From an uncultured Methanoregulaceae archaeon (GTDB lineage Archaea; Halobacteriota; Methanomicrobia; Methanomicrobiales; Methanospirillaceae), in the NCBI GenBank assembly GCA_963701095.1, contig OY969564.1:384001-448000 (forward strand): 64,000 nt of DNA, read 5' to 3'. The notes beneath the pieces are model-generated. The model was not told where the DNA came from. It saw only the letters and a list, made by a program, of their open reading frames with translations, and made no database searches. Both the position numbers and the translations under genes were made by a program. Position 1 is the first letter of the stretch, and every line of letters begins with the position of its first letter. This document shows, one piece after another, positions 2,110-35,302 of the stretch.

Positions 2110-2118
2110 AAAAGAACT

Positions 2119-3968: not shown

Positions 3969-3982
3969 TTCCTGGAGTGTGT

Positions 3983-9331: not shown

Positions 9332-9340
9332 GAGGAGATC

Positions 9341-17600: not shown

Positions 17601-18278
17601 AAGGCGGAAGATCAAATCCGGCAAGCCCTTGCCGAGAAAGAAATCCTTCTCCGCGAACTCCACCACCGGGTGAAAAATAACCTTGCCGGTATCCTCTCCC
17701 TGATTGGGCTTCAATTAAGTCAGGCTCCGGATTCCAATATCGGATCCCAGTTAAAAGATCTTGAAAGCCGGATTCGGAGCATGTCACTGGTTCATGAATT
17801 ACTATACAAAACCAAAAATCTCTCGGAGATTATGTTCCAGGATTATTGTAATAATCTCATCAACTATCTTGTCCAGTCTTATGGAAGCTCTTTAGATATT
17901 AAATGGGAAATTGCGATGGGAGATACAACCTTACCCATGGATTCTGCTATAGTCTGTGGCATGCTTATCACCGAGATTGTCACAAATAGTCTCAAATATG
18001 CATTCCCGCCGGGGTTCTCCCGCTCCGAACGTGATGACGAACCCTGGACGATTACCCTAACTTTGAAGCGTGATGGAGACGCGACTGTAATGACTATAAG
18101 TGACAACGGTATAGGAATACCCAAGAATATTATCGAGAGCCAACCCACAACACTTGGCATGACCCTGATACATCTCTTTGCCAAGAACCAGCTTCAGGGA
18201 GAAGTTGATATCGATAACAAACGGGGGACAAAGTACACTATTACATTCACTCCAAAATACACAGAGGAATATACATGA
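14631..18278 (+). CDS. Multi-PAS/GAF histidine kinase, HisKA_2 type
   Basis: ATGA overlap with the upstream gene at 14631; [11 protein letters not shown]-box, [16 protein letters not shown]; Cys-rich GAF. Confidence 0.92.
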
Positions 18279-19503: not shown

Positions 19504-20764
19504 GGTAGTGTCTCTATAATGCTGTAAAATCAGCACACCCAGTATCCAAAGAGATCATCTCACTCTTCACAGATAAATACCGGTTACCCGTGATCCACTC
19601 CTCATTAATATCGATAAGGATCGAACCGGTAAGTCTTAACAACGAAGCATCATTCGGGAAAGCCCCTATTTTTCTGCTCCGTCGTTTGAGTTCTTTATTA
19701 ACCCGTTCCAGGAGATTAGTAGTCCGGATCTTTTTCCAGTGTTCCGGGGGAAATGCCCGGTAATTCATCAGGCCGTGCTCGAACCGGTAGATGGTATCAG
19801 CAGCCCGAGAGAGCCCGAAATTCTCCAGTTCCTTCGCATAAGCAAGTAAGAGAGCATGATCACTGAGACATTCTTTGAGTCGTTCGGCGATCGACTTGTG
19901 ATATTTTCGGGAGACTTTTCTCAGAACTGCCCGGATAAAATGAACGTGACAAAGCTGCCATGATGAGCCAGGGAACATCCTTTCGGCAGCCGATTGGATC
20001 CCGGAATGTCCATCTGAAATAACGAGATCCACCTTACTGAGACCACGATCCTTGAGGTCGGAAAATATTCCTTCCCAGGTAAGTTCATGTTCCGCATCAG
20101 TGACACGAGCTCCGAGGATCTCCCGGTATCCGTCTTCCCGTACCCTGGCTGACTACGAGAAGAGTCTTCGTTGATGTACTTGACTCCATCTCTTACTTTG
20201 AAGTACGATGCATCGACGAAAAGATACGGAAAGTGTGAGTCGATGGTTCTTTCCATAAACTCCGTGATTTTCACATCGAGTTCCTGTGCTACCTTCGAGA
20301 CGTAGGACGCCGAAATCTGGGTGACGCCCAGATGTGAGATTACTTTCTCGACATTCCGGGTCGATACGCCCTGAAGATACGATTCGATGATCGCGTTCAC
20401 GAGCGCTTTCTCAGCCCGGGAGTATCGTTCGAATACTTTTGTCTCAAACGGGATCTCGCGTAACTGCGGTTTCTGGAGCATGAGATCCCCGAACCGGGTC
20501 TTCAGGGACCTAGACCGGTACCCGTTCCGATGCGCTCTTCTCGAACTCGATCTCGCGTGTTTCGGTACTCCGGCTTGTTGGGCCACTTCCTCGTTCATCA
20601 CATCGTTCAGAAACCACGTGATGAGCTGTTGCATTCCCTTCTCGTTATCGGTAAGATAATTTAGTACGATGTCGTTTAGATTCATTGCCCTGTATTCTCC
20701 TTGTTGCAATCTGATGTTGGATACAGGGCGTCTTCACTTTTTACAGCACTTCGTGTACACTACC
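19504..20764 (-). mobile_element. IS256-family insertion sequence, copy 1
   Basis: 26-bp imperfect TIRs GGTAGTGT-N8-TGCTGTAAAA at both ends; GTTGGTAT duplicated at 19496-19503 and 20766-20773 (9 bp with one mismatch); Mutator-type transposase. Confidence 0.95.
19514..20709 (-). pseudogene. IS256 transposase, frameshifted around 20100-20180 (possibly a sequencing error)
   Basis: Split into ORFs 19921..20709 and 19514..20032; motifs RNGYRSRSLKTRFG, LVISDGHSGI, WQLCHVHF, RTTNLLERVNKELKRR. Confidence 0.88.
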
Positions 20765-21111
20765 GGTTGGTATCGCTGATGATGAAAAAGATCTCATCTT
20801 TGAACATGGATTCGGGAAAAACACCGGTCTTGGACTGTTCTTAGTCAGGGAGGTGTTGGGAATTAACGGTATGACCGTTAAAGAAACCGGTACACCAGGT
20901 AAAGGAGCACGATTCGAGATTACCGTTCCAAAAGGGATGTACCGGCGAGTTGAAGTAACTTAGATCTTTTTGGGTTCTGTCAAGTCTTCGGATGTTGGCG
21001 TTAAGCCTACATCGAAGAAAATATGTCATCTCCCGCAGACTTGACAGAGCCCAGCTTTGTATTAAACGGATTTGTAAGAGAATTCCAACAGAAAATGGAG
21101 GATTTATTTGA

Positions 21112-22074
21112 TCAGGATTTTTTGAACCGCGTGAGAATATAGCTCGTCAGGGTCTTGCCACTGATATTTCGGGTAGATGCATCAACCCGGATAAAGAAGA
21201 ACTCTTCACTACCGGTATCAACAAAGACCGGTTTTTCTGCCGGGGTGATATGCACATGACAAAGTGTTTTTTCCGAGATAACCGGGAATGTGATGTGAAT
21301 ATACTGGCTCGCTGTCTCATAGATCTCAGGAATGTACCGCCGTATTACCGAGTCAATTAGCATTCGCCGGTACCCGTCCGGGTTTCGGTCTTTTTCCAGC
21401 ATTCGGGAATAATCGTCATCGATCCCCACAACCTTTATCATATTTTTTACCCGGTCTTCTTCTATACCTATAATGAGATCTCCACCACTGGAATTCAGGA
21501 AACCGGCAATTGACCTTGCGATAATAAATTTCGAAGCGTTGGTCCGGTATTTTCGCACTTCTGCCGATTCACTAACATCAGCCTCTTCTTTGGAAACCCT
21601 CGTGCTCCAAAGGGCTTTAAACTTAAACTCAACCCTTTCACTTTCCCCGGTGGCGATCATCATCCTGACAGCAATGGTATCATCCTCGGGCACGTTGATT
21701 TGAAGTGCATTCCGTTGTTTGATGACGTAGGAAGAAACCACGGCAATGCCGATAAACAGAAGCGCCTGAAAGATTACGCCACCTACGACAAACACATTTG
21801 GAGTGAGAAAATATGCTGATACCAGCAGGTAAGAAACTGCACAGCCTCCGGCGACATAAATCCCGCGAGAAGGGTAAAAATACGTGGCATAAAGGATTGG
21901 GAAATAGAAAAGCTGCGGGACTATTGAGCCATATCCGGCCGCCATGGAAATATAGGTAACCCCGATGATAGAGGCAGTAATTGAAGCGATAACCCAAAAC
22001 CTGACAAGATCGTTTTGCTGTATTTGAAAGGTGTTCGGTAAACGGTATCCTGGAAGAGCGGGTGTTGGATCCAT
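21112..22074 (-). CDS. 4TM membrane domain fused to a Schlafen/AlbA_2 domain
   Basis: Four hydrophobic helices then GESERVEFK...IAGFLNSSGGDLIIGI...FFIRVDASTR, typical AlbA_2 motifs. Confidence 0.85.
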   Translation of the reverse strand: MDPTPALPGYRLPNTFQIQQNDLVRFWVIASITASIIGVTYISMAAGYGSIVPQLFYFPILYATYFYPSRGIYVAGGCAVSYLLVSAYFLTPNVFVVGGVIFQALLFIGIAVVSSYVIKQRNALQINVPEDDTIAVRMMIATGESERVEFKFKALWSTRVSKEEADVSESAEVRKYRTNASKFIIARSIAGFLNSSGGDLIIGIEEDRVKNMIKVVGIDDDYSRMLEKDRNPDGYRRMLIDSVIRRYIPEIYETASQYIHITFPVISEKTLCHVHITPAEKPVFVDTGSEEFFFIRVDASTRNISGKTLTSYILTRFKKS

Positions 22075-22244
22075 TGTTAATGAGGGCTTAGACTAAGAGG
22101 CTAATAACCATATCTATAGTCGGTGTTGTTGCTTTAATCGATAGTTAGTGATCTGATTGTCGTCAATATTGACCGATTAATTTTCTCGTTGTTGACTGTC
22201 CCCAAAAACAAAGGATCTCAAATCCTCCATTAATCCCCTTTCAG

Positions 22245-22280
22245 TACACCAAAATTAACATAAATGTTAAGGTTGGTGTA
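22245..22280. promoter_or_regulatory. Inverted repeat, probable AbiEi operator
   Basis: TACACCAAAATTAACAT-AA-ATGTTAAGGTTGGTGTA, 17-bp arms with 2 mismatches, ~30 bp upstream of the antitoxin start. Confidence 0.65.
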
Positions 22281-22309
22281 TCTAAGGGGGAAATTGGGAG
22301 AGGAAGGTT

Positions 22310-23068
22310 ATGACAATTGAAATCCTGAAATCAATGGCAAAAGAGAACCAGATCTTTTCTTTTGCACAGATTTACCAGAAAACGCACATCAAAAAAGAGA
22401 TGCTCTGGGTTATCCTCTCCCGCATGGAAGAGAAAGGGTTCATCGAACGGATTGAGAAAGGAAAGTACCTGATCATCCCCTTGGGTAGCGAGAAAGGGAA
22501 ATATACGCTCCATGAGTTCGTCATTGCGTCCTATATCGTAGAACCGTACGCGATCTCATACTGGAGTGCACTCCATTACTACGGGCTCACGGAACAGATT
22601 CCGACCACCGTCTTTGTCCAGACCCCCGCACGTAAAAAGAAGAGCCGGATAGAGATTTTTGGGGTGAATTACCAGATTGTGCGGGTGAAAGAGGACAAGT
22701 TCTTTGGTATCCGCAATGAGTGGATCGAAGAGACCAAGGTCAATGTCACGGATAAAGAAAAAACGATTATTGACTGCCTTGACAAACCACATTACGCTGG
22801 GGGCATAATCGAAATAGCGAAAGCCATGAAGGATAGGTCGCTGAATTACAATAAGCTCATGGAACATGCAGTTAAACTCAACAACTTTGCAGTTATCCGA
22901 AGGCTCGGTTTTCTTTCCGAGAAAATGGGTGTGCCAATTAATCTCCCGCCACCTCGGTCGAACAAATATTTGCTGCTGGACCCTACGATGCCAGCGAAAG
23001 GGGCAAACGATCCTAAATGGCGGCTTGTGATTAATCAGAATATCATCCCGCCGGAGTCACTTGAATGA
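22310..23068 (+). CDS. abiEi: Type IV TA antitoxin, AbiEi family
   Basis: N-terminal wHTH with RIEKGKY, ISYWSALHYYGLTEQIP, VTDKEKTIIDCL. Confidence 0.88.
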   Translation: MTIEILKSMAKENQIFSFAQIYQKTHIKKEMLWVILSRMEEKGFIERIEKGKYLIIPLGSEKGKYTLHEFVIASYIVEPYAISYWSALHYYGLTEQIPTTVFVQTPARKKKSRIEIFGVNYQIVRVKEDKFFGIRNEWIEETKVNVTDKEKTIIDCLDKPHYAGGIIEIAKAMKDRSLNYNKLMEHAVKLNNFAVIRRLGFLSEKMGVPINLPPPRSNKYLLLDPTMPAKGANDPKWRLVINQNIIPPESLE

Positions 23069-23847
23069 TATCAACTCTTGAGATCATGGAGCACTCACGT
23101 GAGCTCGGCGTGCCACCATCAACCATCGAACGAGACTATGCACAGAACTGGCTCCTTGCCGCCTTGCGTCCTATCAATATAGCTCTTAAAGGAGGAACTG
23201 GCATCCGGAAAGTGTTTATTGAAAACTACCGTTTTTCCGATGACCTTGATTTTACTCTCCTTGAGCCGATCGATGCTGTTACAATGCGAGCCGCAGTTCA
23301 CGATGCAGTTATACAGGTTCGCGATGAGAGCGGTATCCAGTTCGAAAATGAACTCAGCTTCCGAGAAACCAAGAACGGTTTTAAGGCAACTGCCCGGTTC
23401 CGGATCCTGAACCGTCACTCTGCATCCCCGGTAAAAATCGATTTGGACCTGACGAGCCCAAATCAGGAGATGGTTTTGCTTCCGGTCAGTATGCGCCCAG
23501 TCTTCCATCCATATTCCGATAGACTTCAGGGATCTATAACATCGTATGCGCTAGAAGAGATTTTGGCTGAGAAGATTCGCTCTATCTTCCAAAGGACCCG
23601 TTCTCGCGATCTCTATGATGTCTGGCAACTCGCAGATCTTGTGAACCGTGAGAATGTGAGATCAATTCTTTACCAAAAATGCGATTACAAAGGTGTTATT
23701 GTAGACACCGCTATGTTAAAAGTCAAGCGGGACCGGTTTGAAGCGGATTGGAGGGTTTCTTTAGGTCATCAAATGAGACAGATACCCGATTTCAATGAGG
23801 CGTTTGATAAAATCCTGGTTGAGATTGAGGATTATTTAAAAGAGTAA
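23065..23847 (+). CDS. abiEii: Type IV TA toxin, AbiEii nucleotidyltransferase
   Basis: ERDY, LKGGT, RFSDDLDF, EILAEKIRS, RSRDLYD motifs; ATGA overlap with the antitoxin. Confidence 0.92.
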   Translation: MISTLEIMEHSRELGVPPSTIERDYAQNWLLAALRPINIALKGGTGIRKVFIENYRFSDDLDFTLLEPIDAVTMRAAVHDAVIQVRDESGIQFENELSFRETKNGFKATARFRILNRHSASPVKIDLDLTSPNQEMVLLPVSMRPVFHPYSDRLQGSITSYALEEILAEKIRSIFQRTRSRDLYDVWQLADLVNRENVRSILYQKCDYKGVIVDTAMLKVKRDRFEADWRVSLGHQMRQIPDFNEAFDKILVEIEDYLKE

Positions 23848-23915
23848 ATAGTCAGCGTTAATGAATCTGATAGGATCGCAGGACTTGAGATTTCATCCAG
23901 AGTATTCTGTTTCAA

Positions 23916-24290
23916 TCAATCGATTCTTTGCGCCATTTCAATTGCAGTACGCAGTTGACGCATATTGTAGGGTTTTAACAGGTACCCGTCGGGTAAGGTT
24001 TGACGAGCGGTGTTCAGGATTTCCGGTTCGTCGTGTGCGGTGACGTAGATAAAAGGGATATCGGTGTTATTAACGAGATGATCACCGACAATGACACCCT
24101 CGGGTTTTCCCTGGAGCATCAGATCTATCAAGACTATGTCAGGGTTTACTTCTTTGATCTTTGCGATTGCGTCCTGAAAGGTTGCAGCCGATCCGGCACA
24201 CGCATATCCCAGTTTTTCTAAAAATGCTTTGAGAAGTTGGGTCTGATCCGCCTCGTCTTCAACAAAAAAAACACGTTTTGGCGCTGTCAT
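23916..24290 (-). CDS. Stand-alone response regulator receiver protein
   Basis: FVEDE, PDIVLIDLML, YVTAH, YLLKPY. Confidence 0.9.
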   Translation of the reverse strand: MTAPKRVFFVEDEADQTQLLKAFLEKLGYACAGSAATFQDAIAKIKEVNPDIVLIDLMLQGKPEGVIVGDHLVNNTDIPFIYVTAHDEPEILNTARQTLPDGYLLKPYNMRQLRTAIEMAQRID

Positions 24291-24560
24291 GGTATCCTCC
24301 TATATCGTTGTTTAGATGCTACTGTTACATCAAACCTGCAACCGTTTACAGGGACGATGAAGTGAAAGTCAATTTAATATAAATTAATCTTTATGATTAA
24401 TAATAAATCTGCATAGTGGTCCGGTAAAATACCAGGTTTGTTTTTTTCTAATTGTGCAATTCTTTCAATTCGTGCTTGAAAACGCCTGTTTATCTAAGTA
24501 CCCGTAGATTCTTTTGTGTCATTTCCGCGTCCGGACACGTGATGACAGAGTTGAACGGCT

Positions 24561-25235
24561 ATGTCATCAGCAACCAGCACCACAATGTCAAATCTCCTGA
24601 CAGCATCCATCACGCTCATCGCAGGATACATGGGGATTACAATCCCCAACGGCACCGCTTTACCCGCAATGGCAGTCATCATTGTTGCCGCAATAGTATC
24701 GCATTTCCATAACAGCAATCTCATATCAGAGATCGAATCTGCATTTGAAGGAACCGCCAATTCATCGCCCCAGACCTCTTCCAATAGTTCGAAGGTAACA
24801 CCTTCTAGCACGCAATCTTCCGTACCTGTAGCAGTTACCCCATCTGTACCAGCACCTCAGACAACTCCGGCACCGTCATCTGCAACCGCTACCGCAGCTT
24901 CGTCATGGATCCAGAATGCTAACGGTACCTATACCAACACGGTCACCGGACGAACATACGCTACACTCGCCCTCGGATATTCCATCGAAGCGACCATTGC
25001 TGCAGCCCAGGCATCGACTGCAGGTACACCACATACGGTCGTTACCCCGAACGGTCAGCAGTTCAGTACCACTTATTCCCAGTACTGGATGGACCCTACC
25101 TACAACACGGCCATCTATGGCACACCCTCTGCTGCTGTGAAAGCGGCATACTCGGATGCCACGTATGCATTTGCCATCGCTCAATACACGATAGGCGCTA
25201 CAACCACGGCCCCGGCCGTTCCGACAACTTCCTAA
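24561..25235 (+). CDS. Hypothetical membrane/surface protein (two N-terminal hydrophobic helices, S/T/P/A-rich linker, Tyr/Thr-rich tail)
   Basis: 224-aa ORF with a coherent composition; no family recognised. Confidence 0.65.
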   Translation: MSSATSTTMSNLLTASITLIAGYMGITIPNGTALPAMAVIIVAAIVSHFHNSNLISEIESAFEGTANSSPQTSSNSSKVTPSSTQSSVPVAVTPSVPAPQTTPAPSSATATAASSWIQNANGTYTNTVTGRTYATLALGYSIEATIAAAQASTAGTPHTVVTPNGQQFSTTYSQYWMDPTYNTAIYGTPSAAVKAAYSDATYAFAIAQYTIGATTTAPAVPTTS

Positions 25236-25395
25236 TCATATATACCGGGTCCGTGTTTGCCTGCCGTCTGGACCTGTCTCCCGGCACGGCGCAAAACCCT
25301 GTTCGAGGGTGCGGTTCATCCCGCCCGGACTCATCTCCCGTGTAGCCAGACAACCACCTGCCACCGTCATCTCTGGCTGCCGGGAAAATCACTCC

Positions 25396-26040
25396 ATGAA
25401 AACCTACCCTCCCCTGCCCGGGATACCGCAGTGCAACTCCACCTCCACACGAGGAAATAAAATTGTCTGGATGAATGGGCCTGAAGGATATCATTATTTC
25501 CGGCAGGTTGAATTTACTGTTTATCGAAATGAGCGCCCTGTAAACCTGGAATGGATTGTCGAGAATTGCCCCCGTATTAATCATATTAACGCATATGAAA
25601 AACCCCTTCCGTGGAATAAGATAGATGGCGATATGCAAACGATCCACGCGTGGTATCTTCGGAATTATGATTATGATTGTGACCCCGAAGGCAATTACAA
25701 ATTCGCCGCACCGGGTGAGGCAATTTTTCCATATCTTGTGGGATGGGTGCCGGGCTCAACATGTGGGGATTGTTACACTCTCGATAATCCACAAAATAAA
25801 ATCCCGCATTGGGTTATGACTAGGAAAAAATACGGAGACGGGAATTTTGGGTATTGTTATGATGCAATACACTACCGTGCTGACCACGCTCATACCCCCG
25901 GACAATACAACCACCTGAAAAGCATCGAATTGGATTTGGAAAATGCGTTAAGGGCGTACAAATCCACGCATAAAGAAAATTGGTTCGATCCCACATTATG
26001 GGATATGGGATTGGAACCTTCTGGATGGGGAATCCACTAA
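25396..26040 (+). CDS. Hypothetical protein (Trp/Tyr/His/Cys-rich)
   Basis: Likely start MKTYPPLPG at 25396; first gene of a closely spaced run leading into the Rep gene. Confidence 0.65.
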   Translation: MKTYPPLPGIPQCNSTSTRGNKIVWMNGPEGYHYFRQVEFTVYRNERPVNLEWIVENCPRINHINAYEKPLPWNKIDGDMQTIHAWYLRNYDYDCDPEGNYKFAAPGEAIFPYLVGWVPGSTCGDCYTLDNPQNKIPHWVMTRKKYGDGNFGYCYDAIHYRADHAHTPGQYNHLKSIELDLENALRAYKSTHKENWFDPTLWDMGLEPSGWGIH

Positions 26041-26051
26041 TCAAAATTTAG

Positions 26052-26273
26052 GTGAATAAAATGACTGAAAAAATAATTAATATCGATAACAGGGAGCGTG
26101 TTTTTGTTCCCTGTCAATGTAAAGACTGCCTGAATACAACCGCGTATATGGTAGGCGATACCTACCGGCGGAGATATTGCAATTTCCATTATCGACAAAT
26201 CCACAATGATCTAATTGCCAAAGGTGCGACGGCAGAAGAATTAAAGAAGGCACTTCTGGAGGATTTGGTATGA
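26052..26273 (+). CDS. Small zinc-finger-like protein
   Basis: CQCKDC...YCNFH; ATGA overlap with the next gene. Confidence 0.6.
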   Translation: MNKMTEKIINIDNRERVFVPCQCKDCLNTTAYMVGDTYRRRYCNFHYRQIHNDLIAKGATAEELKKALLEDLV

Positions 26274-27760
26274 CGGAAACTATACCCGGTCTGAATATCT
26301 CATTATCTGATCTGGATATTGAAACTCCGTTAATTCTTCATGGTTCTGATAAATACAACCACGATGAGACAATTCAAAAAATCATACAGATTCTTGTTTA
26401 TAACGAAGTGAACCAGAAGGATCTAAAATATGAAAGATTCTTAAAACCCTTAAAGAAGGGCGAACAGGAATCAAAATTTTATCCACTAACAAAGGACGAA
26501 TTAAAAATCTGTATCGAAAAATCAAAGGAAATAATTCTATCCATTCATCGGATGAATGAAGAGAAAACACAAGCAACAGAGGATCAACTCAACCAAGGAC
26601 GAGAAACCATACAGAAGATGAGAGAGGAGAGACTAGAGAAAGAAGAACAAAACAATATTGAACTTCTGGAATATGCCGGATCGATATTCTATGGAGGGGA
26701 TTTCATCGAATATTGTAAGGCGGTTTTTGAAAAGATATGGTATGGAGATGAGTATGTACTAGAGGCGGTTCTTTATCAATCAGCAATTGCCAGAATGAAA
26801 AACCCCTATGATGGGTTGCATCTTCATATTGCCGGATCAACACAGATGGGAAAATCTGATAGTATAGTTCATTCTCTCTATTTCGTTCATCCTTCTGACG
26901 TTCTGAATATGAAATTCTCAAAACAATGGATGTTCTATACCAAAAAATTACATGAAAGAATGATTCTGTTTAACGATGATGTGACGATGGGACCGGATGA
27001 GGCGCAACACCTGCGGGCATTTCTCACTTCTTGGAAGACGGGAAACAAAAGAGGAGTTGTAATAAATGGGGATGAAAGGGAATTATCAATTCCCCGGCGT
27101 GTAAGTCTCATCTTAACAAGTGTGGAAAATGTTTCTAAAGAATCTGAAGATGCACAAGACGAAAGCAGGTTCTTAACGGTGAATATGCGAAACAGATCAC
27201 CGGAAACAGAGAAAGCAGTAAGAAAATTCATGCAGCAACCCCCGGTTGACATATCACGAGAACTAAAAATAATCCATCTGATATGGGATTATTTCGTAGA
27301 GCCAGAAAAAATAAAGGTTGAACTTCACGACACGATAGAAAAAGAAATGCCAAACAGGGAGTTTAAGCGATTTCTTTCAATGATACAGGCACATGCTCTC
27401 CTTTGCGGTAGAACAAAAACGACTAAAGAAGATACGGATGCAATAGATATTTTCTTACTAAACACGCGTCCGATGTTAAACGCAACCACGGCGGGATTTA
27501 CCAATAACGAATTGTGTGTATCCGAATGTCTCAGTACGGAAAATTGGATGAGCACAAGGGAGATACAAGAGAAAACAGGTATGAGTTATGCAAATGTAGC
27601 AAGGGCATTACATGGTAACAAAGGTACTTTTGAGAATCCAACCAATGGACTTTTGGTAAAATCCAAAATCCAACAGAAATTAAACAGAGATGAAAATGAA
27701 AACAACGTTCGAAAATTCAAGAAAATGGTGGTTGGTGCGGCAGTACAGACAAAATTTTAA
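26270..27760 (+). CDS. Putative replication protein: AAA+ (MCM-like) ATPase/helicase with C-terminal wHTH
   Basis: Walker A GSTQMGKS, Walker B ILFNDD, Arg finger ESRFL, sensor-2-like REFKRFLSMIQAHALL..R..TKED, HTH MSTREIQEKTGMSYANVARAL; PriCT-1-like PLTKDELKICIEKS. Confidence 0.75.
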   Translation: MTETIPGLNISLSDLDIETPLILHGSDKYNHDETIQKIIQILVYNEVNQKDLKYERFLKPLKKGEQESKFYPLTKDELKICIEKSKEIILSIHRMNEEKTQATEDQLNQGRETIQKMREERLEKEEQNNIELLEYAGSIFYGGDFIEYCKAVFEKIWYGDEYVLEAVLYQSAIARMKNPYDGLHLHIAGSTQMGKSDSIVHSLYFVHPSDVLNMKFSKQWMFYTKKLHERMILFNDDVTMGPDEAQHLRAFLTSWKTGNKRGVVINGDERELSIPRRVSLILTSVENVSKESEDAQDESRFLTVNMRNRSPETEKAVRKFMQQPPVDISRELKIIHLIWDYFVEPEKIKVELHDTIEKEMPNREFKRFLSMIQAHALLCGRTKTTKEDTDAIDIFLLNTRPMLNATTAGFTNNELCVSECLSTENWMSTREIQEKTGMSYANVARALHGNKGTFENPTNGLLVKSKIQQKLNRDENENNVRKFKKMVVGAAVQTKF

Positions 27761-27777
27761 AAATTAAAATACGCCCG

Positions 27778-28072
27778 ATTAACACGGATTACGCGGAATT
27801 ACACAGCAATTTACACACTTTTTTTTAAACCTTCGGGGCCATTTACACATTTACACGTTTTTTGGTGTTTGCGAGCAAGCAACCAAAAAAATATTTTCAA
27901 AATTCATACGCGTTCTATGAAAATCATTATACACGTTCTAAAAATGAAAAATATTTTTCAAAATACCCCCCTCTCATTTTTGTGTAAATAGGTGTAAATG
28001 TGTAAATGCTCCTCTATAATAATAAAAAATAATAATGTAAATAGGTGTAAATAGGTGTAAATCATTGTTAAT
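27778..28072. repeat. Inverted iteron-like arrays flanking an AT-rich core (putative replication origin)
   Basis: ATTTACAC and variants at 27778, 27788, 27798, 27809, 27841, 27849; reverse complement GTGTAAAT at 27982, 27992, 28000, (28036), 28045, 28055. Confidence 0.8.
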
Positions 28073-28321
28073 GGACAAAACGGAGTTTAATTCTTTGTCC
28101 GTTTCCACTTTTTCAGAGGTGCGTATTCATAACTATATCCACAAAGTTATGAACTTCATATACATTCTATCCCACCACCCGGCGCTTCAATATGCGTTCT
28201 GTTATGAACCGCTCATAACCCCCCGTGGAGGGTTTCATCTCGCGTTCTGTTATGAATTATCCCAACACCCGCGTTCTATCCAGCAATCGATCCAACCCAG
28301 TTACCCCACAACGCCCGCGTG

Positions 28322-28414
28322 GTTATACAACTTCGACGTAGTTATACAACTTGTTTTGTGGTTGTATAACTTCGACGTGAATATAGTTGTATAACTTCCT
28401 TGTAGTAATACAAC
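28322..28414. repeat. Array of five quasi-palindromic GTTRTAYAAC 10-mers
   Basis: GTTATACAAC at 28322 and 28341, GTTGTATAAC at 28361 and 28386, GTAATACAAC at 28405; two are followed by TTCGACGT. Confidence 0.8.
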
Positions 28415-28472
28415 CATTATAGGGCTTTGTACCTAAAGTCCGATCAAGGATGAGTCAAACTTGGCGACAACA

Positions 28473-29063
28473 TCACTCATGCCTTTGGTTTTGCCACTTT
28501 TTCCACGCAGAAAGGATCATTGACGCCTCAAGGGGAGTTTTAGGCGAATTGGTTAAGCGCATCCCGCCTAACCGCCCGCGCAGATATAAAGCATCAGTGT
28601 CTTTAGGTGTAAACCGCAACACATAATCTAGGCACCACAACGCTTCCTGATATCGCTTAAGATTAAAGAGCGCCCACGAATAGTTATACAGCGTCGCACA
28701 ATTAACCACCGGCAGGGTGTTGGCCTTCTGGCTACCGAGCAACAGGAGGATTAATCCGGCGATGCTCTCGTTTTGATTGTCTATGTAAAAATCCCCCACA
28801 CCCTCTATCAGTAGATTGCCACGTAACGATTTCTCCCATGCCAGCAACGCAGCTGGGAGATCACCTATATTTGAATAGGCATAACCCAATGTCCACCAGT
28901 CAAAAAGTGTCATGCTCTCTGGTGGAACCTCTTTCATCGTCGTAATGCACTTTTCCCATTCCTTCGCACTGGCGAACTTTGTTGCATCCTTGGCAAGTGA
29001 GTGCGTCTCCATCGGGTATGGCTTCGTTTTCTCCTTCTTTTTCAGAAAGTCAAAAATGCCCAT
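28473..29063 (-). CDS. Tetratricopeptide repeat protein
   Basis: WWTLGYAYSNIGDLPAALLAWEKSL and LYNYSWALFNLKRYQEALWCLDYVLRFTPKDTDALYLRG; start MGIFDFLKK. Confidence 0.8.
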   Translation of the reverse strand: MGIFDFLKKKEKTKPYPMETHSLAKDATKFASAKEWEKCITTMKEVPPESMTLFDWWTLGYAYSNIGDLPAALLAWEKSLRGNLLIEGVGDFYIDNQNESIAGLILLLLGSQKANTLPVVNCATLYNYSWALFNLKRYQEALWCLDYVLRFTPKDTDALYLRGRLGGMRLTNSPKTPLEASMILSAWKKWQNQRHE

Positions 29064-29323
29064 TGTTATCAACTAAATTATCATTTCAAAAATATATTAA
29101 GTTCGGGCTAGGGCTTAATGTCAGAGTTCTTCATTAAGACCACCGCGAGACTTACGCATAAGATAAAAAAAAGATTGTGGGCTTTTTGGAATGCTGGACA
29201 GGTAAGAAACACATCCGCTCTTATATTTTAGGTGCAAGTCAAAGACTTTAGGTGCAGAACGCAACTTCAGATGCCCCATTATAGGAAATGTTTATATACA
29301 TAAATTATCTAGGCATATATATT

Positions 29324-29611
29324 ATGATTGGTTCTGACAAACAAATGGTTAACGTTGCGCTTCTCCGTGAAGATGTCGAACGCATTAAGAAATTGAAGAA
29401 ACCTGTATCGGAGTTTTGCTGTGAGACGGTAAGCGAACGATTAAGGATTATCGAATTGGCAAAAGAGAACACGGTGCAGGATTGGATGTATGTGGATGCA
29501 GACACGGTGACGGATACAGACCAGATAGTTATTGAGCCGGATCCGGTTCATGATGATCCCCCGGTTATGAAAACAAACCCGGATTGGTCTAAACTTTTTG
29601 CCAGAGTATAG
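29324..29611 (+). CDS. Small putative ribbon-helix-helix/CopG-like regulator
   Basis: MVNVALLREDVERIKKLKKPVSEFCCETVSERL fits a strand-helix-helix pattern; TTTATATA box upstream. Confidence 0.5.
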   Translation: MIGSDKQMVNVALLREDVERIKKLKKPVSEFCCETVSERLRIIELAKENTVQDWMYVDADTVTDTDQIVIEPDPVHDDPPVMKTNPDWSKLFARV

Positions 29612-29905
29612 ACGCGTATTACATCATCATGAAATAGAAATCATACGCGTTCTATCGTCGCTGCTAATAATAATAAAATCGCATAGCGCGGTTTCTGTGG
29701 TTTTTACACAAACCACATGCACTTATGCGATCCGGCAGCACTTTTGCCACTGGGCGCAATCTGTGCGGGTCACGGAATGATGTGAGCGGGTGGAGGGAAT
29801 CAACATCTTGATGAATCATCAAAAGCGTATTTTGAAATTCATAAATACATTTATGATTTTCACCAAACCGATAGGTATTTGCCCATTTGAATAAATCAAT
29901 CGTGT

Positions 29906-30130
29906 ATGGTAAAATGGGAAATCATTATACCCGGTATAATTTGTTTCGTAATTGGTATAGCGGCAATTGTTTATGCAGCAAGTTTGGGAACTTCGTCTAA
30001 TATCCCCAATACTTCGTGGACAGAATCACAAATTCTTGGATATCCCGTCCGGGTAATTGGTGAATATATCTTTGGAGTTAGTTTGATTATAATAGGGCCT
30101 TATTTGATGAATAAAGGGTGGAAGTTCTAA
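29906..30130 (+). CDS. Small 2-TM membrane protein
   Basis: Two hydrophobic helices; converges on the minus-strand operon. Confidence 0.6.
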   Translation: MVKWEIIIPGIICFVIGIAAIVYAASLGTSSNIPNTSWTESQILGYPVRVIGEYIFGVSLIIIGPYLMNKGWKF

Positions 30131-30324
30131 CATCCTACCCTTTTAACTTCGATAAATGCGCCACTTATCGTTAAAATTGTAGCAATGAGAACCATGTAAA
30201 AACCACTATCCAAATTTTCTGGAATTCGTAAATATTCACCTAATAGAAGTTCAACCATAATGATACCAGCAATTCCCATAAACCAATAGGCAATTAATTT
30301 TTGATTGTCTCTAAAAAATGTCAT
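30127..30324 (-). CDS. Small 2-TM membrane protein
   Basis: Hydrophobic 65-aa ORF, ATGA overlap with the upstream gene. Confidence 0.6.
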   Translation of the reverse strand: MTFFRDNQKLIAYWFMGIAGIIMVELLLGEYLRIPENLDSGFYMVLIATILTISGAFIEVKRVGC

Positions 30325-30602
30325 AGATTACACTCCTCTATCTTCACACTTCCCAACCACGCACCAAAAAATACCAGGCAAAAGGCAAGCACGATTAAAT
30401 CCCCGATGAGAGCATACCCACCGTACTGAGCCGGCGCCGTGTGTATTGTATCGGTGAATCCAGCCATCATGTTTGAATAGTACGCATCCACGATCCGGGG
30501 CATTATCGAAGAGAAAAACGCCAATATCAAAAAAGAGGGTATGAGGATAAAGGAAAGTCTAGTTTTTATTGGAGATCTCCTTATCTCGTATGCGGTTATC
30601 AT
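30321..30602 (-). CDS. Small 2-TM membrane protein
   Basis: Hydrophobic 93-aa ORF, ATGA-coupled on both sides. Confidence 0.6.
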   Translation of the reverse strand: MITAYEIRRSPIKTRLSFILIPSFLILAFFSSIMPRIVDAYYSNMMAGFTDTIHTAPAQYGGYALIGDLIVLAFCLVFFGAWLGSVKIEECNL

Positions 30603-30727
30603 TTTTCCAACCGCACAACAAGATCCGGATACACTTCTAATATTCCCAAAAGTGCCTCTTCGGGAATATCTACCAACACCCCGCCGTCTTTAATTTCTAA
30701 TCCGGTATCAGTCGTATCCAAAATCAT
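30599..30727 (-). CDS. 42-aa acidic hypothetical protein (not in ORF track)
   Basis: MILDTTDTGLEIKDGGVLVDIPEEALLGILEVYPDLVVRLEK; stop overlaps the next ATG. Confidence 0.55.
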   Translation of the reverse strand: MILDTTDTGLEIKDGGVLVDIPEEALLGILEVYPDLVVRLEK

Positions 30728-30869
30728 CCCCATCCTCAAACTGGTGCTCCAGCTTCCATGCAAAGTCCTCATTTCTCTGCGCCAAAAATGCCAGTTCTTC
30801 TATGGATGCATAAAACGGTTCTCCGTTTTCATCGGCAATCACTGTGTAAAATTCGTTTTTACGCACCAT
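30708..30869 (-). CDS. 53-aa acidic hypothetical protein (not in ORF track)
   Basis: MVRKNEFYTVIADENGEPFYASIEELAFLAQRNEDFAWKLEHQFEDGDDFGYD; TGATG coupling to the upstream ORF. Confidence 0.55.
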   Translation of the reverse strand: MVRKNEFYTVIADENGEPFYASIEELAFLAQRNEDFAWKLEHQFEDGDDFGYD

Positions 30870-31015
30870 CAGAAATCACGTGGTTCTCCTGTCTCACGGC
30901 ATAATTCCCGGCAGCATTTTGTACAAATTATCGCCAATGGTGTATCGAAATACTGCCGGCGCTTGTGCGTTTCACAGAGACGGCATTTCCTTACTCTCCA
31001 CGGGCCGGAACTCAT
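30869..31015 (-). CDS. 48-aa zinc-finger microprotein
   Basis: CRLC...CTKCC..LC; starts 5 bp after the stop of 31020..31331. Confidence 0.55.
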   Translation of the reverse strand: MSSGPWRVRKCRLCETHKRRQYFDTPLAIICTKCCRELCRETGEPRDF

Positions 31016-31019
31016 GATA

Positions 31020-31331
31020 TCACAAAATCCTTTTCCCCATCGCATATACCGCCGTGCCGCTTCCAAACGCCGGTCTTTTCTTGGCAGCGGGCCGGTGTTG
31101 GGTTTGTGCTCTCTGTTGTGCGGTTTGTGCCCGCTGTGCATACGCGGCAGCTTCCCCGGGTGTGATTATTTTCCCGTTCAAACTTCGATACCCCTGATTT
31201 GCCAGATACTTCATTGCCGCTTGTGATATTGCCGCTTGCGAAGCGCCGGGATTTGCACGGGCGATTTTGTTATAAATCGCGTTAAATGCTGCTTGTGCCG
31301 CTGGACTTGCATTTAGTTTAGGTGGTGTCAT
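31020..31331 (-). CDS. Basic Ala/Gln-rich hypothetical protein
   Basis: 103-aa ORF, nearly no acidic residues, ATGA-coupled. Confidence 0.6.
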   Translation of the reverse strand: MTPPKLNASPAAQAAFNAIYNKIARANPGASQAAISQAAMKYLANQGYRSLNGKIITPGEAAAYAQRAQTAQQRAQTQHRPAAKKRPAFGSGTAVYAMGKRIL

Positions 31332-31534
31332 GTGCGATCACTCCCTCTAAACGACGCGCCGGCCACATGTGCATTTTTACGACTATGCGGAATGCGGAGT
31401 TTGAGATTTGAACTTGTCTTAACCCGTGTGTAGATTTCATTCCCTGTCACCACCACGGCCACCAAAGAAAGAAAATCGTTTCTTTTCTCCCTGTTCTGCA
31501 TTCTTGCTAATTCTACCGAGAAACCCGGTTTCAT
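31328..31534 (-). CDS. Hypothetical protein
   Basis: 68-aa ORF coupled to the downstream gene. Confidence 0.4.
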   Translation of the reverse strand: MKPGFSVELARMQNREKRNDFLSLVAVVVTGNEIYTRVKTSSNLKLRIPHSRKNAHVAGASFRGSDRT

Positions 31535-31620
31535 TATTTATGTTTTGATTTACACGATCCCACTGTGAACCCTTCTTATCTAAAAATCCCATATTAATCA
31601 CGTCCTGAATTTTTCTTAAA

Positions 31621-31737
31621 TCAACCGATATTCAAACCACGATTTACTTTTTCATTATATCTGGTGATATCCCCTTCCGCATCCTTCCGGATCGGCACTT
31701 CTTGCTTTTCACGAATGATAAAAATTCTATCCATCAT
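31621..31737 (-). CDS. 38-aa hypothetical protein
   Basis: MMDRIFIIREKQEV...; TAATG coupling to 31737..32309. Confidence 0.4.
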   Translation of the reverse strand: MMDRIFIIREKQEVPIRKDAEGDITRYNEKVNRGLNIG

Positions 31738-32309
31738 TACCGCCTCCGTGAGGGTTTCTTTTTTCTTTTCGCTGTAGTGGATTTTTTTGGAAGACTTGAA
31801 CCAATACCAAACCCGCCTCCGGACATAAGACCAGACATGCCAGGAACAGAACTTGGAACAGACCAAAGAGAATGATAATTATCATTCGCAGTTTTTTTAT
31901 TCGATACTCCTATAGGCGCAGTAACCCATGTACCAGAAACATTCTCCCAGCCACTACTACGCATTGCCTCATGTCTGCGATTTGCGACGTTTGAACCTTC
32001 TACATATCGAGAGGTTGTTTTTTGGATCGCACCATGAACTTTACCCGCAACCCGGCGCACCTTCGTGAGTATCGGGTGTTTCTTTTCGTATTCTTCCTTG
32101 TCCTTTGCCGGTTTCTGTTGCTCACGGAGTTTTTTGTTTAAGTCCCGGCGTGCCTGTTGATTAGCAGGGACTCCGTTAACTTTCACATTCTGCGAGCGGG
32201 AACCACGGGCGGGAGATTGTTTTTGAGGCTGTTGTTTCTGGTGATTCTTCATCCACTCAACATACTCGGCCCCGGTTAGCCCCTCTGGTGCGTCATCTTG
32301 CATAATCAC
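31737..32309 (-). CDS. Highly basic low-complexity hypothetical protein
   Basis: 190 aa, K/R/Q-rich, Gly-rich segment then C-terminal KKSTTAKRKKKPSRRR. Confidence 0.65.
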   Translation of the reverse strand: MIMQDDAPEGLTGAEYVEWMKNHQKQQPQKQSPARGSRSQNVKVNGVPANQQARRDLNKKLREQQKPAKDKEEYEKKHPILTKVRRVAGKVHGAIQKTTSRYVEGSNVANRRHEAMRSSGWENVSGTWVTAPIGVSNKKTANDNYHSLWSVPSSVPGMSGLMSGGGFGIGSSLPKKSTTAKRKKKPSRRR

Positions 32310-32473
32310 AACTCCCCGATCTCCTCCATACAGGACAGAACTTGTTTGTTTACTCGCCTGTGTGTGCCGATGTGATCTTGTACATAGGCACTATGAAGTG
32401 CATCCTCATGGTTTTTGTATTGAGAATGAACGCGCTGCTTTTTTCGTCTAACAATTATTTTTGCAATTACCAT
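32306..32473 (-). CDS. 55-aa basic hypothetical protein (not in ORF track)
   Basis: MVIAKIIVRRKKQRVHSQYKNHEDALHSAY...; overlaps the start of the next gene. Confidence 0.5.
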   Translation of the reverse strand: MVIAKIIVRRKKQRVHSQYKNHEDALHSAYVQDHIGTHRRVNKQVLSCMEEIGEL

Positions 32474-32479
32474 TTTTCT

Positions 32480-32668
32480 TCACCTTACTCCTGAAAACAA
32501 AATATCGACGTGTAACAATATCCCGCACAACTTCCGCCCGATACCCGCGATCTTCCCAAGACCGGGCTTCTGCTCGGGCATATCTGATACCCGCCGGCCC
32601 ACTTTTGAGACCCTAATACCGGGGCGACCGTCGATAATCGGGTTGTGTGTTTGAATGTGACGTGTCAT
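32480..32668 (-). CDS. Hypothetical protein, first gene of the minus-strand operon
   Basis: 62-aa ORF; TATA-rich tract at ~32710-32750 upstream. Confidence 0.5.
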   Translation of the reverse strand: MTRHIQTHNPIIDGRPGIRVSKVGRRVSDMPEQKPGLGKIAGIGRKLCGILLHVDILFSGVR

Positions 32669-32826
32669 CGGTTTTTCTCTCTATTTCTTCAATCAATATT
32701 AGACAGAAGATATAAGTACTGCTATATACTTATAGTATTTAAATATATCTACACAAATCGCGTATTACAACGACGGAGAAAGAACACACGCGCACATGCG
32801 CGGAAAGAAAATGCAAAAATCAAGCG

Positions 32827-32952
32827 CGGGGCGGTGTCCAGGTGGTATCTGCTGACGGGAAACCGTACCATATCCGGAACCGGCTCACTCTCTGCCGGTG
32901 CGGGAAATCACAGAACAAGCCGTTCTGCGATGGGAGTCATGCACAGCATTGA
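32827..32952 (+). pseudogene. 3' remnant of a CDGSH iron-sulfur domain gene
   Basis: RGGVQVVSADGKPYHIRNRLTLCRCGKSQNKPFCDGSHAQH*; no in-frame start back to the TAA at 32740. Confidence 0.88.
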
Positions 32953-32988
32953 CATAATAAGAATGATCACAGAGGAGTGAAAAGAACC

Positions 32989-33402
32989 ATGAGTTTTGTT
33001 AAAGTTGCAAAAGCTGGTGAGATACCTGCCGGAGCTATGAAACATGTTGAGGTGGGCGGGACAGAGATTTGCATTGCAAATGTCAAAGGGACATTTTATG
33101 CAATCGGAGACCGTTGTGGCCACGAGAATGCAAGGCTCTCCCGGGGCTCCCTGATGGATACCATCGTGACTTGCCCCATGCATTCTTCACAGTTTGACGT
33201 AACCACCGGGAAACTTATGTCCGGGCCGGTTCTGGAACTCGGCGGGCTCAAGGAGATGTTTACCGGCTGTCCCGAAAAAGTGAAAAAAGCGGTGGCGCAG
33301 ATGTTTGAGGGAATTGTCGAGGAGCAGCGCCTGATCAAGACGTACGATCAATCGGTTTACGAAGTGAAAGTGGATGGTGATGATGTGCTGGTTCAGCTTT
33401 AA
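32989..33402 (+). CDS. Rieske [2Fe-2S] ferredoxin
   Basis: CGH...CPMH ligands, FDVTTGK..GP; helical insertion before the C-terminal strands. Confidence 0.9.
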   Translation: MSFVKVAKAGEIPAGAMKHVEVGGTEICIANVKGTFYAIGDRCGHENARLSRGSLMDTIVTCPMHSSQFDVTTGKLMSGPVLELGGLKEMFTGCPEKVKKAVAQMFEGIVEEQRLIKTYDQSVYEVKVDGDDVLVQL

Positions 33403-33625
33403 ACTCAGGTGTTGACCGATGCAGCCTGAACAAATTAGGTAACATTCAACGAGATTGTCTATGATTAAAACAAGAGAGACAACCCAATAATGTGCAATAA
33501 ATGTATTCAAATAACCAATTTCGGCTCTGTTAACTTGTTAGGAGATAATCATTTTTTCAATGCTAATTCATGAAAAATCATGACGAGATGAATATATCAA
33601 GTCCCGATAATGCACCAGAATCCCA

Positions 33626-35302
33626 TCAGTTACCAGTCTCAAGTATTCGCCAAAAACCTTTGGGCACCGTTATCTCAAACCGGGCACCTTTACCAAATAC
33701 ACCGTTCTCTTTGATAGTAAGCCCGGTAATCGCGAGGATTTCCTTTACAAGGAACAACCCGTATCCTGTATTCTTTCCAAATCCTCGTTCAAAAATTCTT
33801 TCCTTATCCTCGTCCGGGATTCCGCCTCCATCATCTTGATAAACAATAATCAGGTCGTCATGGTCTCTACGATATTCTAGTGAAATGCTGGTCAGGTTTT
33901 TTCCATGACGAAGGGAATTTTCAAGGAGATTGCCATATATTTTTTCGATAAGCAAATCAGTATAGATCTCAAGATTGCCGGTATTGACCACTATTGAAAC
34001 TCCACCCAAATCTGTGGTTTCAAGAACTTTTGTTACCGTAGCATTGACATTATTCCACTGTGAAGGTTGGATCCCAATATTCTGGTAATCACGGGTAAAC
34101 GTAATCTGGCGTCTGATGGTCTCGGCAATCTGTTGTTCCTGGTTTGCGAGCTCGGCAATTTTTGTATCGTCTGCAACCTTTTTTGTCATTCCGATATAGC
34201 CTGATAGACTATTGAGTTGGTTGAGAATGTCATGTCTTGTAACACTATTCAAGAGGACAATCTGTTTAGTTGCCTTGCGTATCCCCTCTTCTGCCCTTTT
34301 CTGTTCAGTGATGTCATGGCTGACTCCAAAGACGACATTCTTGACCCGATCATATTCCGCAATCGATTGAATAGTCATAAATGCGTTATCACCCGGCCTC
34401 TGAATCTTAAACTCAATATTGTATGGTTTGTTTTGTTCGATCAATTCCTGAAGGGCCTTATCCAACGCCTGCCGGTACTCAGGAAGTGCTATCTTCTGGA
34501 ACTCTCTAACATCCCATTCCTCACCCGAGAGACCGTACAGCTTCCGTGCTCCATCGGATGCTGTCAGTTTGTTCCGGTCAGGATAATATTCCCAGTTACC
34601 AAAATGCGCAACACCTTCTGCACGTCTGAGCCGGGCCATATTGTGCATAAGGGCCTCTTCTGCTTTATTGCGCTCTTCGATCTCTTTCTGGAGTGCATCA
34701 TTTGTGGTGACAAGCGCTGCAGTCCGTAACCGAACCCGTTCCTCTAACTCCTGCTGATATCGTTTCATTTCCGTGATATCTTCAAGGATAATCCCGACTG
34801 CCTGGCTACCATCTTCAAACACGAGAGGAATAAATTTAATTTTGAAAAACCGTTCATCGTCTTCAACATTGAAATACGCTTCGAAGCTGCATTCCTTTCC
34901 GTCCAGTGCTTTTTCAAGAGCTGCAAAGTGTTCTCCGGTAAAGTATGGTGAGATCTTTGAATGTTCCAGCTTGAGTCCCTTAAGATCGTCTTTTGAGATA
35001 TTAAAATAAGAAAGGAGGGAGTCATTGACTTCTTGAATGAAAAGATCCTGATCAAGGATCATAATCAGATCGGAAGCGAGACTCAACAGGTTGGTCAACG
35101 GCAGCCTTTGGTTAACATAGAACAATTTTGCCGGTCCCAGAACCCGCAAATCTGCCTGCCCGGATACGACCAGGGAATTAAGATATTTCGCTGCAGTGGA
35201 ACGATTCAGCGAGAGTTTCTTTGATACTTGCTCAATGGTCAGTCCTTTGGGGTTGTCCTTTAAGAGATCCCGGATCCGCACCAATTCGCTCTCCTGAACC
35301 AT
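33626..35302 (-). CDS. wHTH-PAS-PAS histidine kinase
   Basis: N-terminal GLTIEQVSKKLSLNRSTAAKYL HTH, PAS domains, VTRHD H-box, HATPase. Confidence 0.9.
   Translation of the reverse strand: MVQESELVRIRDLLKDNPKGLTIEQVSKKLSLNRSTAAKYLNSLVVSGQADLRVLGPAKLFYVNQRLPLTNLLSLASDLIMILDQDLFIQEVNDSLLSYFNISKDDLKGLKLEHSKISPYFTGEHFAALEKALDGKECSFEAYFNVEDDERFFKIKFIPLVFEDGSQAVGIILEDITEMKRYQQELEERVRLRTAALVTTNDALQKEIEERNKAEEALMHNMARLRRAEGVAHFGNWEYYPDRNKLTASDGARKLYGLSGEEWDVREFQKIALPEYRQALDKALQELIEQNKPYNIEFKIQRPGDNAFMTIQSIAEYDRVKNVVFGVSHDITEQKRAEEGIRKATKQIVLLNSVTRHDILNQLNSLSGYIGMTKKVADDTKIAELANQEQQIAETIRRQITFTRDYQNIGIQPSQWNNVNATVTKVLETTDLGGVSIVVNTGNLEIYTDLLIEKIYGNLLENSLRHGKNLTSISLEYRRDHDDLIIVYQDDGGGIPDEDKERIFERGFGKNTGYGLFLVKEILAITGLTIKENGVFGKGARFEITVPKGFWRILETGN

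Follow-up and report, generated by a model that had tools for sequence, protein, structure and literature searches.

In the pri-rep-ori module of the staphylococcal pathogenicity islands (SaPIs), as passages of PMC9371898 describe it, the origin consists of 6-12 penta- or hexanucleotide iterons directly 3' of rep, divided equally between the two flanks of an AT-rich centre, with two or more per flank in opposite directions. According to the same passages, the iterons are read by a winged helix in the C-terminal domain of Rep, a primase gene lies upstream, and Rep2 is MCM-like (PMC9371898). Excerpts of a more recent preprint put the SaPI origin at about 300 bp with presumably one hexamer per side, and state that PriRep5 reads the bases with its wing and not with the helix (bioRxiv 10.64898/2026.10.17.759575). 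Here we describe a region of similar plan in a 64,000-nucleotide stretch of DNA from an uncultured Methanoregulaceae archaeon (the window, whose positions are used throughout). At 27778-28072, directly downstream of an open reading frame (ORF) for a 496-aa AAA+ helicase-like initiator that we call Rep (26270-27760, + strand), two facing arrays of a short word flank an AT-rich core. We infer that this region serves an integrated mobile element, in a Methanoregula-type methanogen, as its replication origin, and we put the probability that the arrays are a Rep-bound origin by design, of the self-loading-helicase type, at roughly 0.75.

By analogy of layout, the closest known system is the SaPI module, ahead of the archaeal origins built on origin recognition boxes (ORBs) or the bacterial iteron plasmids. 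As in SaPIs, the arrays lie directly downstream of rep, with the first unit 18 bp past the stop codon in the window and 3-45 bp past it in all ten homologous loci that we compared (L001 to L010). In the window and in all ten loci they consist of short iterons in two opposed sets around an AT-rich centre, the AT enrichment being weak in L002 and L010. Rep is also predicted to be an AAA+ MCM-like helicase with a C-terminal winged helix, and the upstream or fused primase and the integrase of SaPIs recur in its relatives, though not in the window copy. The host, however, is an archaeon, the units are longer (7-8 bp, compared with 5-6), a spacer of 24-35 bp divides each arm 3+3, and a core motif is common to several elements. 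In contrast to base reading by the wing in PriRep5, the specificity signal here appears, from sequence comparison, to fall on the recognition helix. Systems of this kind are already known, and what is new is the Rep family, its host among the archaea, the splitting of the arms and the core motif that elements share. A literature search returned nothing on this Rep family or on such an origin in Methanoregula.

A first reading of the letters alone (the sequence-only reading) had instead named ORB origins and iteron plasmids as precedents. Archaeal ORB origins do place inverted sites around an AT-rich unwinding element, adjacent to the gene for an AAA+ Orc1/Cdc6 protein with a C-terminal winged helix. 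However, ORBs are long single sites and Orc1/Cdc6 loads a separate MCM, whereas the window sites are arrays of an 8-bp unit, no Cdc6/Orc model matches Rep and the structures most similar to it are helicases. The bacterial iteron plasmids (RepA, pi, TrfA) likewise have repeated initiator sites beside an AT-rich region and a specificity matched to their Rep. Their iterons are about 17-22 bp long, mostly direct and on one side of the unwinding element, and their non-ATPase WH-WH (tandem winged-helix) initiators work with host DnaA and DnaB; by contrast, Rep carries the Walker A and B motifs of an ATPase, its units are 8 bp long in inverted arrays, and it has no match in 72,556 plasmid records. 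The general logic of both precedents is common to this locus, but their defining features fail and the SaPI module is closer. SV40 large T antigen and papillomavirus E1 resemble the Rep system in that initiator and helicase are one protein. In these viral origins short inverted sites flank the melting region and two hexamers assemble; the DNA-binding domain lies N-terminal to the helicase, the sites are fewer than here, and neither origin nor binding domain is homologous to those of the Rep system. SaPI Rep itself has been likened to both viral proteins (PMC7581432). For the Sulfolobus plasmid pRN1 (orf56/orf904), the abstract of PMC4234260 places the origin in a stem-loop of about 100 nt within 166 bp downstream of the rep gene; iteron arrays are not described in that abstract. 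Like our locus, pRN1 is an archaeal primase-helicase replicon with its origin downstream of rep, and window 27770-28080 also folds as a hairpin. However, ORF904 is a fused prim-pol and SF3 helicase, and no sequence relation to Rep was found.

We located the units of the window by direct reading of 27400-28500. The left outer array (27778-27816, + strand) holds four units, ATTAACAC at 27778, ATTACGCG at 27788 (a short form, ATTACGC), AATTACAC at 27797 and the exact unit ATTTACAC at 27809. A spacer (27817-27840) with a T8 run at 27819-27826, which possibly doubles as the rep terminator, separates it from the left inner array (27841-27856, + strand) of two abutting exact units at 27841 and 27849. 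Beyond the core, the right inner array (27982-28007, - strand) has three exact units, read as GTGTAAAT on the + strand, at 27982, 27992 and 28000. An A-rich spacer that mirrors the left one (28008-28034) leads to the right outer array (28035-28072, - strand), whose four units read on the + strand as ATGTAAAT at 28035, GTGTAAAT at 28045 and 28055, and TTGTTAAT at 28065. Counting exact and degenerate copies, there are six units on the left, all on the + strand, and seven on the right, all on the - strand, which bears out the earlier estimate of about six units after the Rep stop facing about six reverse-complement units. Start-to-start spacings are 10, 9, 12, 32 and 8 bp on the left and 10, 8, 35, 10, 10 and 10 bp on the right, so that the earlier figure of mostly 8-11 bp holds for most intervals but not for one of 12 bp and one gap of 32 or 35 bp per arm. 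The symmetry centre of the arrays lies at about 27924-27925.

The clustering of these units is not random. The exact word ATTTACAC occurs 11 times in the 64 kb, with eight of these copies inside the 254 bp of 27809-28062 (binomial 1e-17), the first three on the + strand and the next five on the - strand. For the shorter word TTTACAC the window has 17 copies where 6.99 are expected (sd 2.74), a count attained by none of 100 shuffles, and eight of the 17 fall within the arrays. Between the arms lies an asymmetric core (27857-27981), our candidate unwinding region, which at 125 bp and 71.2% AT, compared with 55.3% for the window, ranks in the top 1.2% of 125-bp windows. The sequence-only reading had given an AT-rich spacer of about 125 bp with two copies of an A/T box near 27886 and 27947, and both copies were found there: palindromic boxes of the form AAAAA(A)TATTTT(T)CAAAAT (AAAAATATTTT-type) at 27886-27903 and 27947-27964. 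The core also contains TGCGAGCAAGCAACC at 27870-27884, two ATACRCGTTCTA boxes at 27906-27917 and 27929-27940, and a C/T tract at 27966-27975. No ORF of at least 50 aa was found on either strand within 27761-28064, and an Rfam scan of 26000-33000 gave no match at E up to 1. The arms, spacers included, belong to a larger imperfect palindrome (an inverted repeat of 44 nt, 73% complementary), and the segment 27770-28080, taken as a single strand, folds into a long, imperfect hairpin (-44.8 kcal/mol, z=-4.09). Just beyond the right arm, a smaller hairpin, GGACAAA(N14)TTTGTCC followed by a T-run, can be read from the sequence at 28073-28115 (+ strand).

The same reading had proposed that homologous rep genes be checked for inverted arrays downstream that co-vary with them. 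A scan of genome contigs gave the ten loci, which encode Rep relatives of 42-47% identity, nine of the loci coming from Methanoregula or Methanomicrobiales metagenome-assembled genomes (MAGs) and one from a contig binned as Dehalococcoidia; together with the window, 11 loci were compared. The Dehalococcoidia contig (L004, JBAZEO010000056.1) encodes a Rep 47% identical to the Methanoregula Reps and has the same origin layout, and its assignment is probably a binning error. All ten loci have two facing arrays of a short word behind the Rep stop. In each, the best 7-mer, with at most one mismatch, has 8-18 sites in the 340 bp after the stop, compared with means of 4.6-7.7 and maxima of 6-10 in 20 shuffles, and with 0.7-2.6 sites per 340 bp in the remainder of the locus. 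The order of polarity is + units, then - units; the origin regions can be aligned, and a typical arm has 2-3 outer units, a spacer and 2-3 inner units. The core is richer in AT than its own locus in 11 of 11 cases, by 0.03-0.22.

Although the layout is conserved, the unit differs among loci. The window shares ATTTACAC with L008, while the unit is ATTTTCAY in L009, ATTATCAC in L001, ATTATCC in L007 and L010, ATTACCCC in L002, L005 and L006, ATTWWCC in L004, and WTTGACC in L003. A further motif, (T/C)GCAAGCAA, adjoins the inner array in five of the 11 loci (at most one mismatch), with a density of 2.22 per kb in origins compared with 0.26 per kb elsewhere; looser variants were seen by eye in L001, L003 and L009. 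In L005 this motif is on the opposite strand beside the other arm, and in L009 the C/T tract is also inverted. The asymmetric core thus appears flipped between its symmetric arms in these two of the 11 loci, as would result from recombination between the inverted arms. In the arm spacers, CTCCGACG is found on the left in five of 11 loci and its near-complement CCTCGGAG on the right in four of 11; as a general spacer motif this pair was rejected, and the window has neither.

We aligned the 11 Reps and compared unit distance with protein-segment distance by Mantel tests. The unit correlates with the 13-aa helix segment at residues 437-449 (r=0.51, p=0.0008) and not with the AAA+ domain (r=0.11, p=0.21). 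The correlation with the helix persists in partial tests that control for the AAA+ domain or the remaining winged helix (r=0.47-0.51, p about 0.001), and in a sliding scan of 223 windows of 13 aa the top six start at residues 437-442. The two loci with unit ATTTACAC have the helix segments GMSYANVARALHG (window) and GMSLANVYRALHG (L008), and the three loci with unit ATTACCCC (L002, L005 and L006) all have GLT[LIV]Q[SA]VYKALRG. At the level of single residues, His448 pairs with T at unit position 4 (4/4 loci), Arg448 with A or G (7/7), and Lys445 with ATTACCCC (3/3). The AAA+ tree, on the other hand, places the window as sister to L005 (92/94) and L002 as sister to L006 (81/94), whereas unit and helix group the window with L008 and L005 with L002 and L006. 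This conflict of groupings amounts to two co-switches. Across the winged-helix region as a whole, the window Rep is nearer to L005 (45%) than to L008 (38%), and the match with L008 is therefore local to the helix rather than a swapped block. From these comparisons, the unit appears to follow the recognition helix of the winged helix and not the phylogeny of the ATPase. Arrays thus occur behind every homologue compared, and co-vary with it as had been proposed; the earlier suggestion that this is the element's origin gains support from both results, from which origin activity would follow by inference.

These loci also bear on two other functions for the arrays. If they were operators for the flanking genes, or the partition centromere of another element protein, rather than an origin, one would look to L003 and L004, where the next gene begins about 15-40 bp past the last unit and its promoter must therefore overlap the right arm. 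The parC-type centromeres are also short repeats around a promoter, and in the window a second motif, ACGTTCT, connects the core with a region further downstream. However, the unit tracks Rep's own recognition helix, the arrays stay behind Rep whichever gene is next (resolvase, terminase, methyltransferase or ribbon-helix-helix (RHH) genes, depending on the locus), and there is no ParA/ParB-type gene among the scanned ORFs, which together make this explanation very improbable. Promoter control by Rep could, in any case, coexist with origin function. A packaging site of the pac or cos type, recognised by a terminase, is suggested by L004 and L008, in which a helix-turn-helix (HTH) gene or small ORF and a large-terminase gene follow within 0.3-2 kb. 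Since a terminase is present in only two of the ten loci, with none in the window or L005, and the arrays are tied to Rep rather than to terminase, we regard this as extremely improbable.

The Rep protein itself fits a Rep-bound origin. It has a Walker A motif (GSTQMGKS, with K195), a Walker B motif (D236/D237), and a QDESRF motif with R300, whose SRF resembles the MCM arginine finger; every motif that is invariant in the alignment of homologues is intact in the window copy. In the AlphaFold model (pLDDT 81.3, pTM 0.70, from a 24-sequence alignment) the N-terminus is helical and the AAA+ core has a beta-hairpin following Walker B; there is also a lid, and residues 412-485 form a C-terminal winged helix, with the predicted recognition helix at about residues 440-448 (YANVARALH). 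Compared with PDB structures, all of the matches listed for this model are MCM chains (E 3e-8 to 1e-6, TM 0.35-0.41, 12-14% identity), and the likeness is confined to the ATPase and winged-helix part. Against predicted viral structures, Rep matches best with ORF A460 of Sulfolobus virus Kamchatka 1 (SSV-K1; E 2.5e-13, TMq 0.52), with phage and giant-virus primase-helicases ranking next.

A profile search of 1.84 billion cluster representatives returned 1010 clusters at E<=0.001, 645 at 1e-10 and 66 at 1e-30. Among 30 mostly long relatives scanned for primase fusions, out of 150 listed, ten have an N-terminal primase domain (Prim-Pol/PriCT_1, DnaG-type or NrS-1 HBD) and 18 have no Pfam match. 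A PrimPol or primase is also fused to Rep in the homologue P0009, and another homologue, P0002, is 78% identical. The accession PF27228 is assigned to Rep and to all 33 homologues listed, and a literature search found no mention of it; the names of clusters gave no information either. With Pfam models that do not include PF27228, Rep gave a sub-threshold AAA_lid_8 match only; NCBIfam and PHROGs scans gave none, and neither Pfam nor NCBIfam gave an MCM or Cdc6/Orc family match. Searches of PDB chain sequences with Rep and with the family profile returned chance matches only (best E with the profile 0.021, a plant ribosome-inactivating protein (RIP)), and tblastn found no match in 50,697 phage records or in the plasmid records mentioned above. 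With this predicted fold and the primase fusions of relatives, the label Rep, for a replicative helicase-initiator, is justified. The protein is not assignable to the MCM family, given the absence of a sequence-family match and a modelled N-terminus that is helical. It would also be a family separate from SaPI Rep, to judge by the lack of profile similarity to PDB chains, among which SaPI Rep structures are presumed to be included.

Taken as a Rep-bound origin, the region suggests the following mechanism. The recognition helix of the Rep winged helix would read the 8-bp unit ATTTACAC, and the roughly six units per arm, about one helical turn apart and of opposite polarity, would gather Rep into one ring on each side. 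The 125-bp AT-rich core would then be distorted and melted, and the Rep rings would load there. Synthesis would be primed by PrimPol; the window copy lacks this gene, so a host primase would have to serve. Such an origin would extend the logic of a self-loading helicase on facing iteron arrays to archaea from the staphylococcal islands and the eukaryotic DNA viruses, with a Rep whose nearest solved fold is MCM, a helicase that in cells needs loading by Orc1/Cdc6. The natural pairs of helix and iteron are also a ready test of how winged helices read DNA. No vector is known to replicate autonomously in Methanoregula or its relatives, and the Rep-plus-ori cassette (about 2 kb), which exists in seven or more natural specificity variants, offers a concrete start for one. 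The sequence-only reading had pointed to vector use in Methanomicrobiales, which is plausible, although a primase or a complete relative may be needed, the window copy being without PrimPol.

Several observations weigh against this reading. With up to one mismatch, the count of units across the whole window is ordinary (57, with 57.67 expected), and the array signal therefore lies in clustering and strand polarity. The most AT-rich 60-mer of the area (83%) is 28013-28072, in the right arm and outside the core, and in L002 (0.58 vs 0.50) and L010 (0.59 vs 0.56) the core is only slightly richer in AT than its locus. When searched for exact 6-mers, L004 and L006 gave no array, and L001, L003, L008 and L009 each gave one unit of the wrong polarity; this search is too strict. 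The comparison covers 11 loci that are mutually related. The unit is weakly correlated with the rest of the winged-helix region as well (r=0.24, p=0.04), the winged helix is encoded beside the arrays, so that linkage could contribute to the co-variation, and the forks of the AAA+ tree are not strongly supported, none of them starred, with five of eight inner branches open. The ends of the three loci that are complete short contigs (L003, L007 and L010) do not overlap, which gives no sign of a free circular form. Finally, the window element is without the integrase and PrimPol of L005 and has unrelated genes upstream instead, of which the nearest (25309-26040) has no primase signature.

This last point raises the possibility that the arrays are an origin by descent but dead, in a truncated remnant of an element (about 26050-32820) where they no longer fire. 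The element starts at a step in GC content, from 0.50 (25001-26000) to 0.37 (26001-27000), and homology with L005 begins abruptly just after it, at 26061. In L005 the integrase (1375-2697) and PrimPol (4472-5401) lie upstream of Rep, where the window has unrelated genes. In a search for att sites, comparing 18000-26300 with 32300-34000 and the two ends of L005 with each other, direct repeats reached 11 bp at most, and this lack of flanking repeats of 12 bp or more speaks for a remnant. Arrays serving as attP arm sites were also considered and rejected, as they are intact inside the integrated element. On the other hand, the Rep ORF is intact with all of the invariant family motifs, eight units are still exact although decay would blur the units first, and a protein at least 90% identical to the window Rep is present on another contig. 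The window copy may therefore be a remnant in its gene content, but we consider it unlikely that the origin is dead, and either state is compatible with an origin bound by Rep.

Comparison of the window with L005 also bears on how Rep and its arrays are inherited. The two are collinear at 26061-26278 with 88.5% DNA identity (L005 5411-5628), and again with 70-81% identity at 28158-28256, 29574-29824, 30304-31445, 31594-31793 and 32393-32819. Between these blocks, 26278-28158, which is exactly Rep plus the arrays, has no DNA similarity to L005, and the Rep proteins are 44.5% identical. With collinear flanks around a dissimilar segment, Rep and its arrays were therefore replaced, or have diverged, together as a single cassette. 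The first block encodes a small Cys/His-rich ORF (26062-26273, + strand; 70 aa from ATG 26062), whose stop overlaps the Rep start (ATGA, 26270-26273). Its product is 85.7% identical to the L005 counterpart over 70 aa and has no Pfam, NCBIfam or PHROGs match. Upstream, with operon-like spacing to this ORF and Rep, 25309-26040 encodes a 243-aa protein with a sub-threshold Pfam DUF6009 match. As a divergent primase it was rejected, there being no BLASTP match to the L005 PrimPol (E 4.5), none in PHROGs and no usable match in the ESM Atlas. Next to it, 24561-25235 encodes a Ser/Thr/Ala-rich membrane-anchored protein; both genes occupy the place that PrimPol has in relatives.

Among the ten loci, a tyrosine integrase lies upstream of Rep in seven, the other three being short contigs, and in L001, L002 and L005 a PrimPol or primase gene is directly adjacent to Rep. 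Large-terminase genes lie downstream in L004 and L008. The L008 element, about 8.5 kb (about 1200-9700), is inserted between ruvC (699-1172) and ruvA (9720-10316) and carries genes for an integrase, Rep, an HNH protein and a large terminase (divided over two ORFs), together with an origin of unit ATTTACAY, but no recognisable capsid gene; it is either a remnant or a satellite-like element. One speculative extension, which we think rather unlikely, is that the Methanoregula elements (integrase - PrimPol - Rep - ori, 7-10 kb; some, such as L008, with only terminase and HNH) are archaeal counterparts of the phage-inducible chromosomal islands, with a readable one-helix specificity code in which residues 441/442, 445 and 448 correspond to unit positions 4-8. 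If this were true, orthogonal methanogen replicons could be designed by swapping helix and iterons together.

Downstream of the origin, the window and L005 have in common a run of small genes on the minus strand (30127-32473; L005 8354-10650) with 55-82% protein identity and no family match. Among its products are two small hydrophobic proteins, one protein with a CxxC...CxxC pattern (30869-31141) and a basic one of 190 aa (31737-32309). A second repeat family lies between Rep and these genes (28146-28280; L005 7298-7413), and consists of RCGTTCTR words with GTTATGAAC(N)GTTCATAAC-type palindromes, including GCGTTCTGTTATGAA at 28194 and 28242. The region is 70% identical between the window and L005, and in L005 it lies directly 5' of an RHH-like gene. 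Two RCGTTCTR copies, at 27906 and 27929, fall inside the origin core of the window, and the repeats may serve as operators for a regulator of the element and touch the origin as well. A third family (28303-28416) has GTTATACAAC twice and then its reverse complement GTTGTATAAC twice, in arms of 32 nt that are 78% complementary. The stretch that contains it exceeds its L005 counterpart in length by about 1 kb (28256-29574 vs L005 7413-7731) and includes a tetratricopeptide repeat (TPR) gene on the minus strand (28473-29072).

Further from the element, 22310-23847 encodes an AbiEi antitoxin and AbiEii toxin pair (Pfam E 1e-5 and 2e-28), adjoined by a Schlafen AlbA_2 protein on the minus strand (21112-22074). 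A Mutator-family transposase on the minus strand (19514-20709) is split into two overlapping ORFs that cover profile positions 18-176 and 227-378, and is probably frameshifted. The region 931-19519 is a row of very large PAS, histidine-kinase and response-regulator genes, encoding proteins of up to 1784 aa, together with a CheC-like gene, and on the other side of the element a methyl-accepting chemotaxis protein (MCP) with four HAMP_2 repeats is encoded at 37363-39498.

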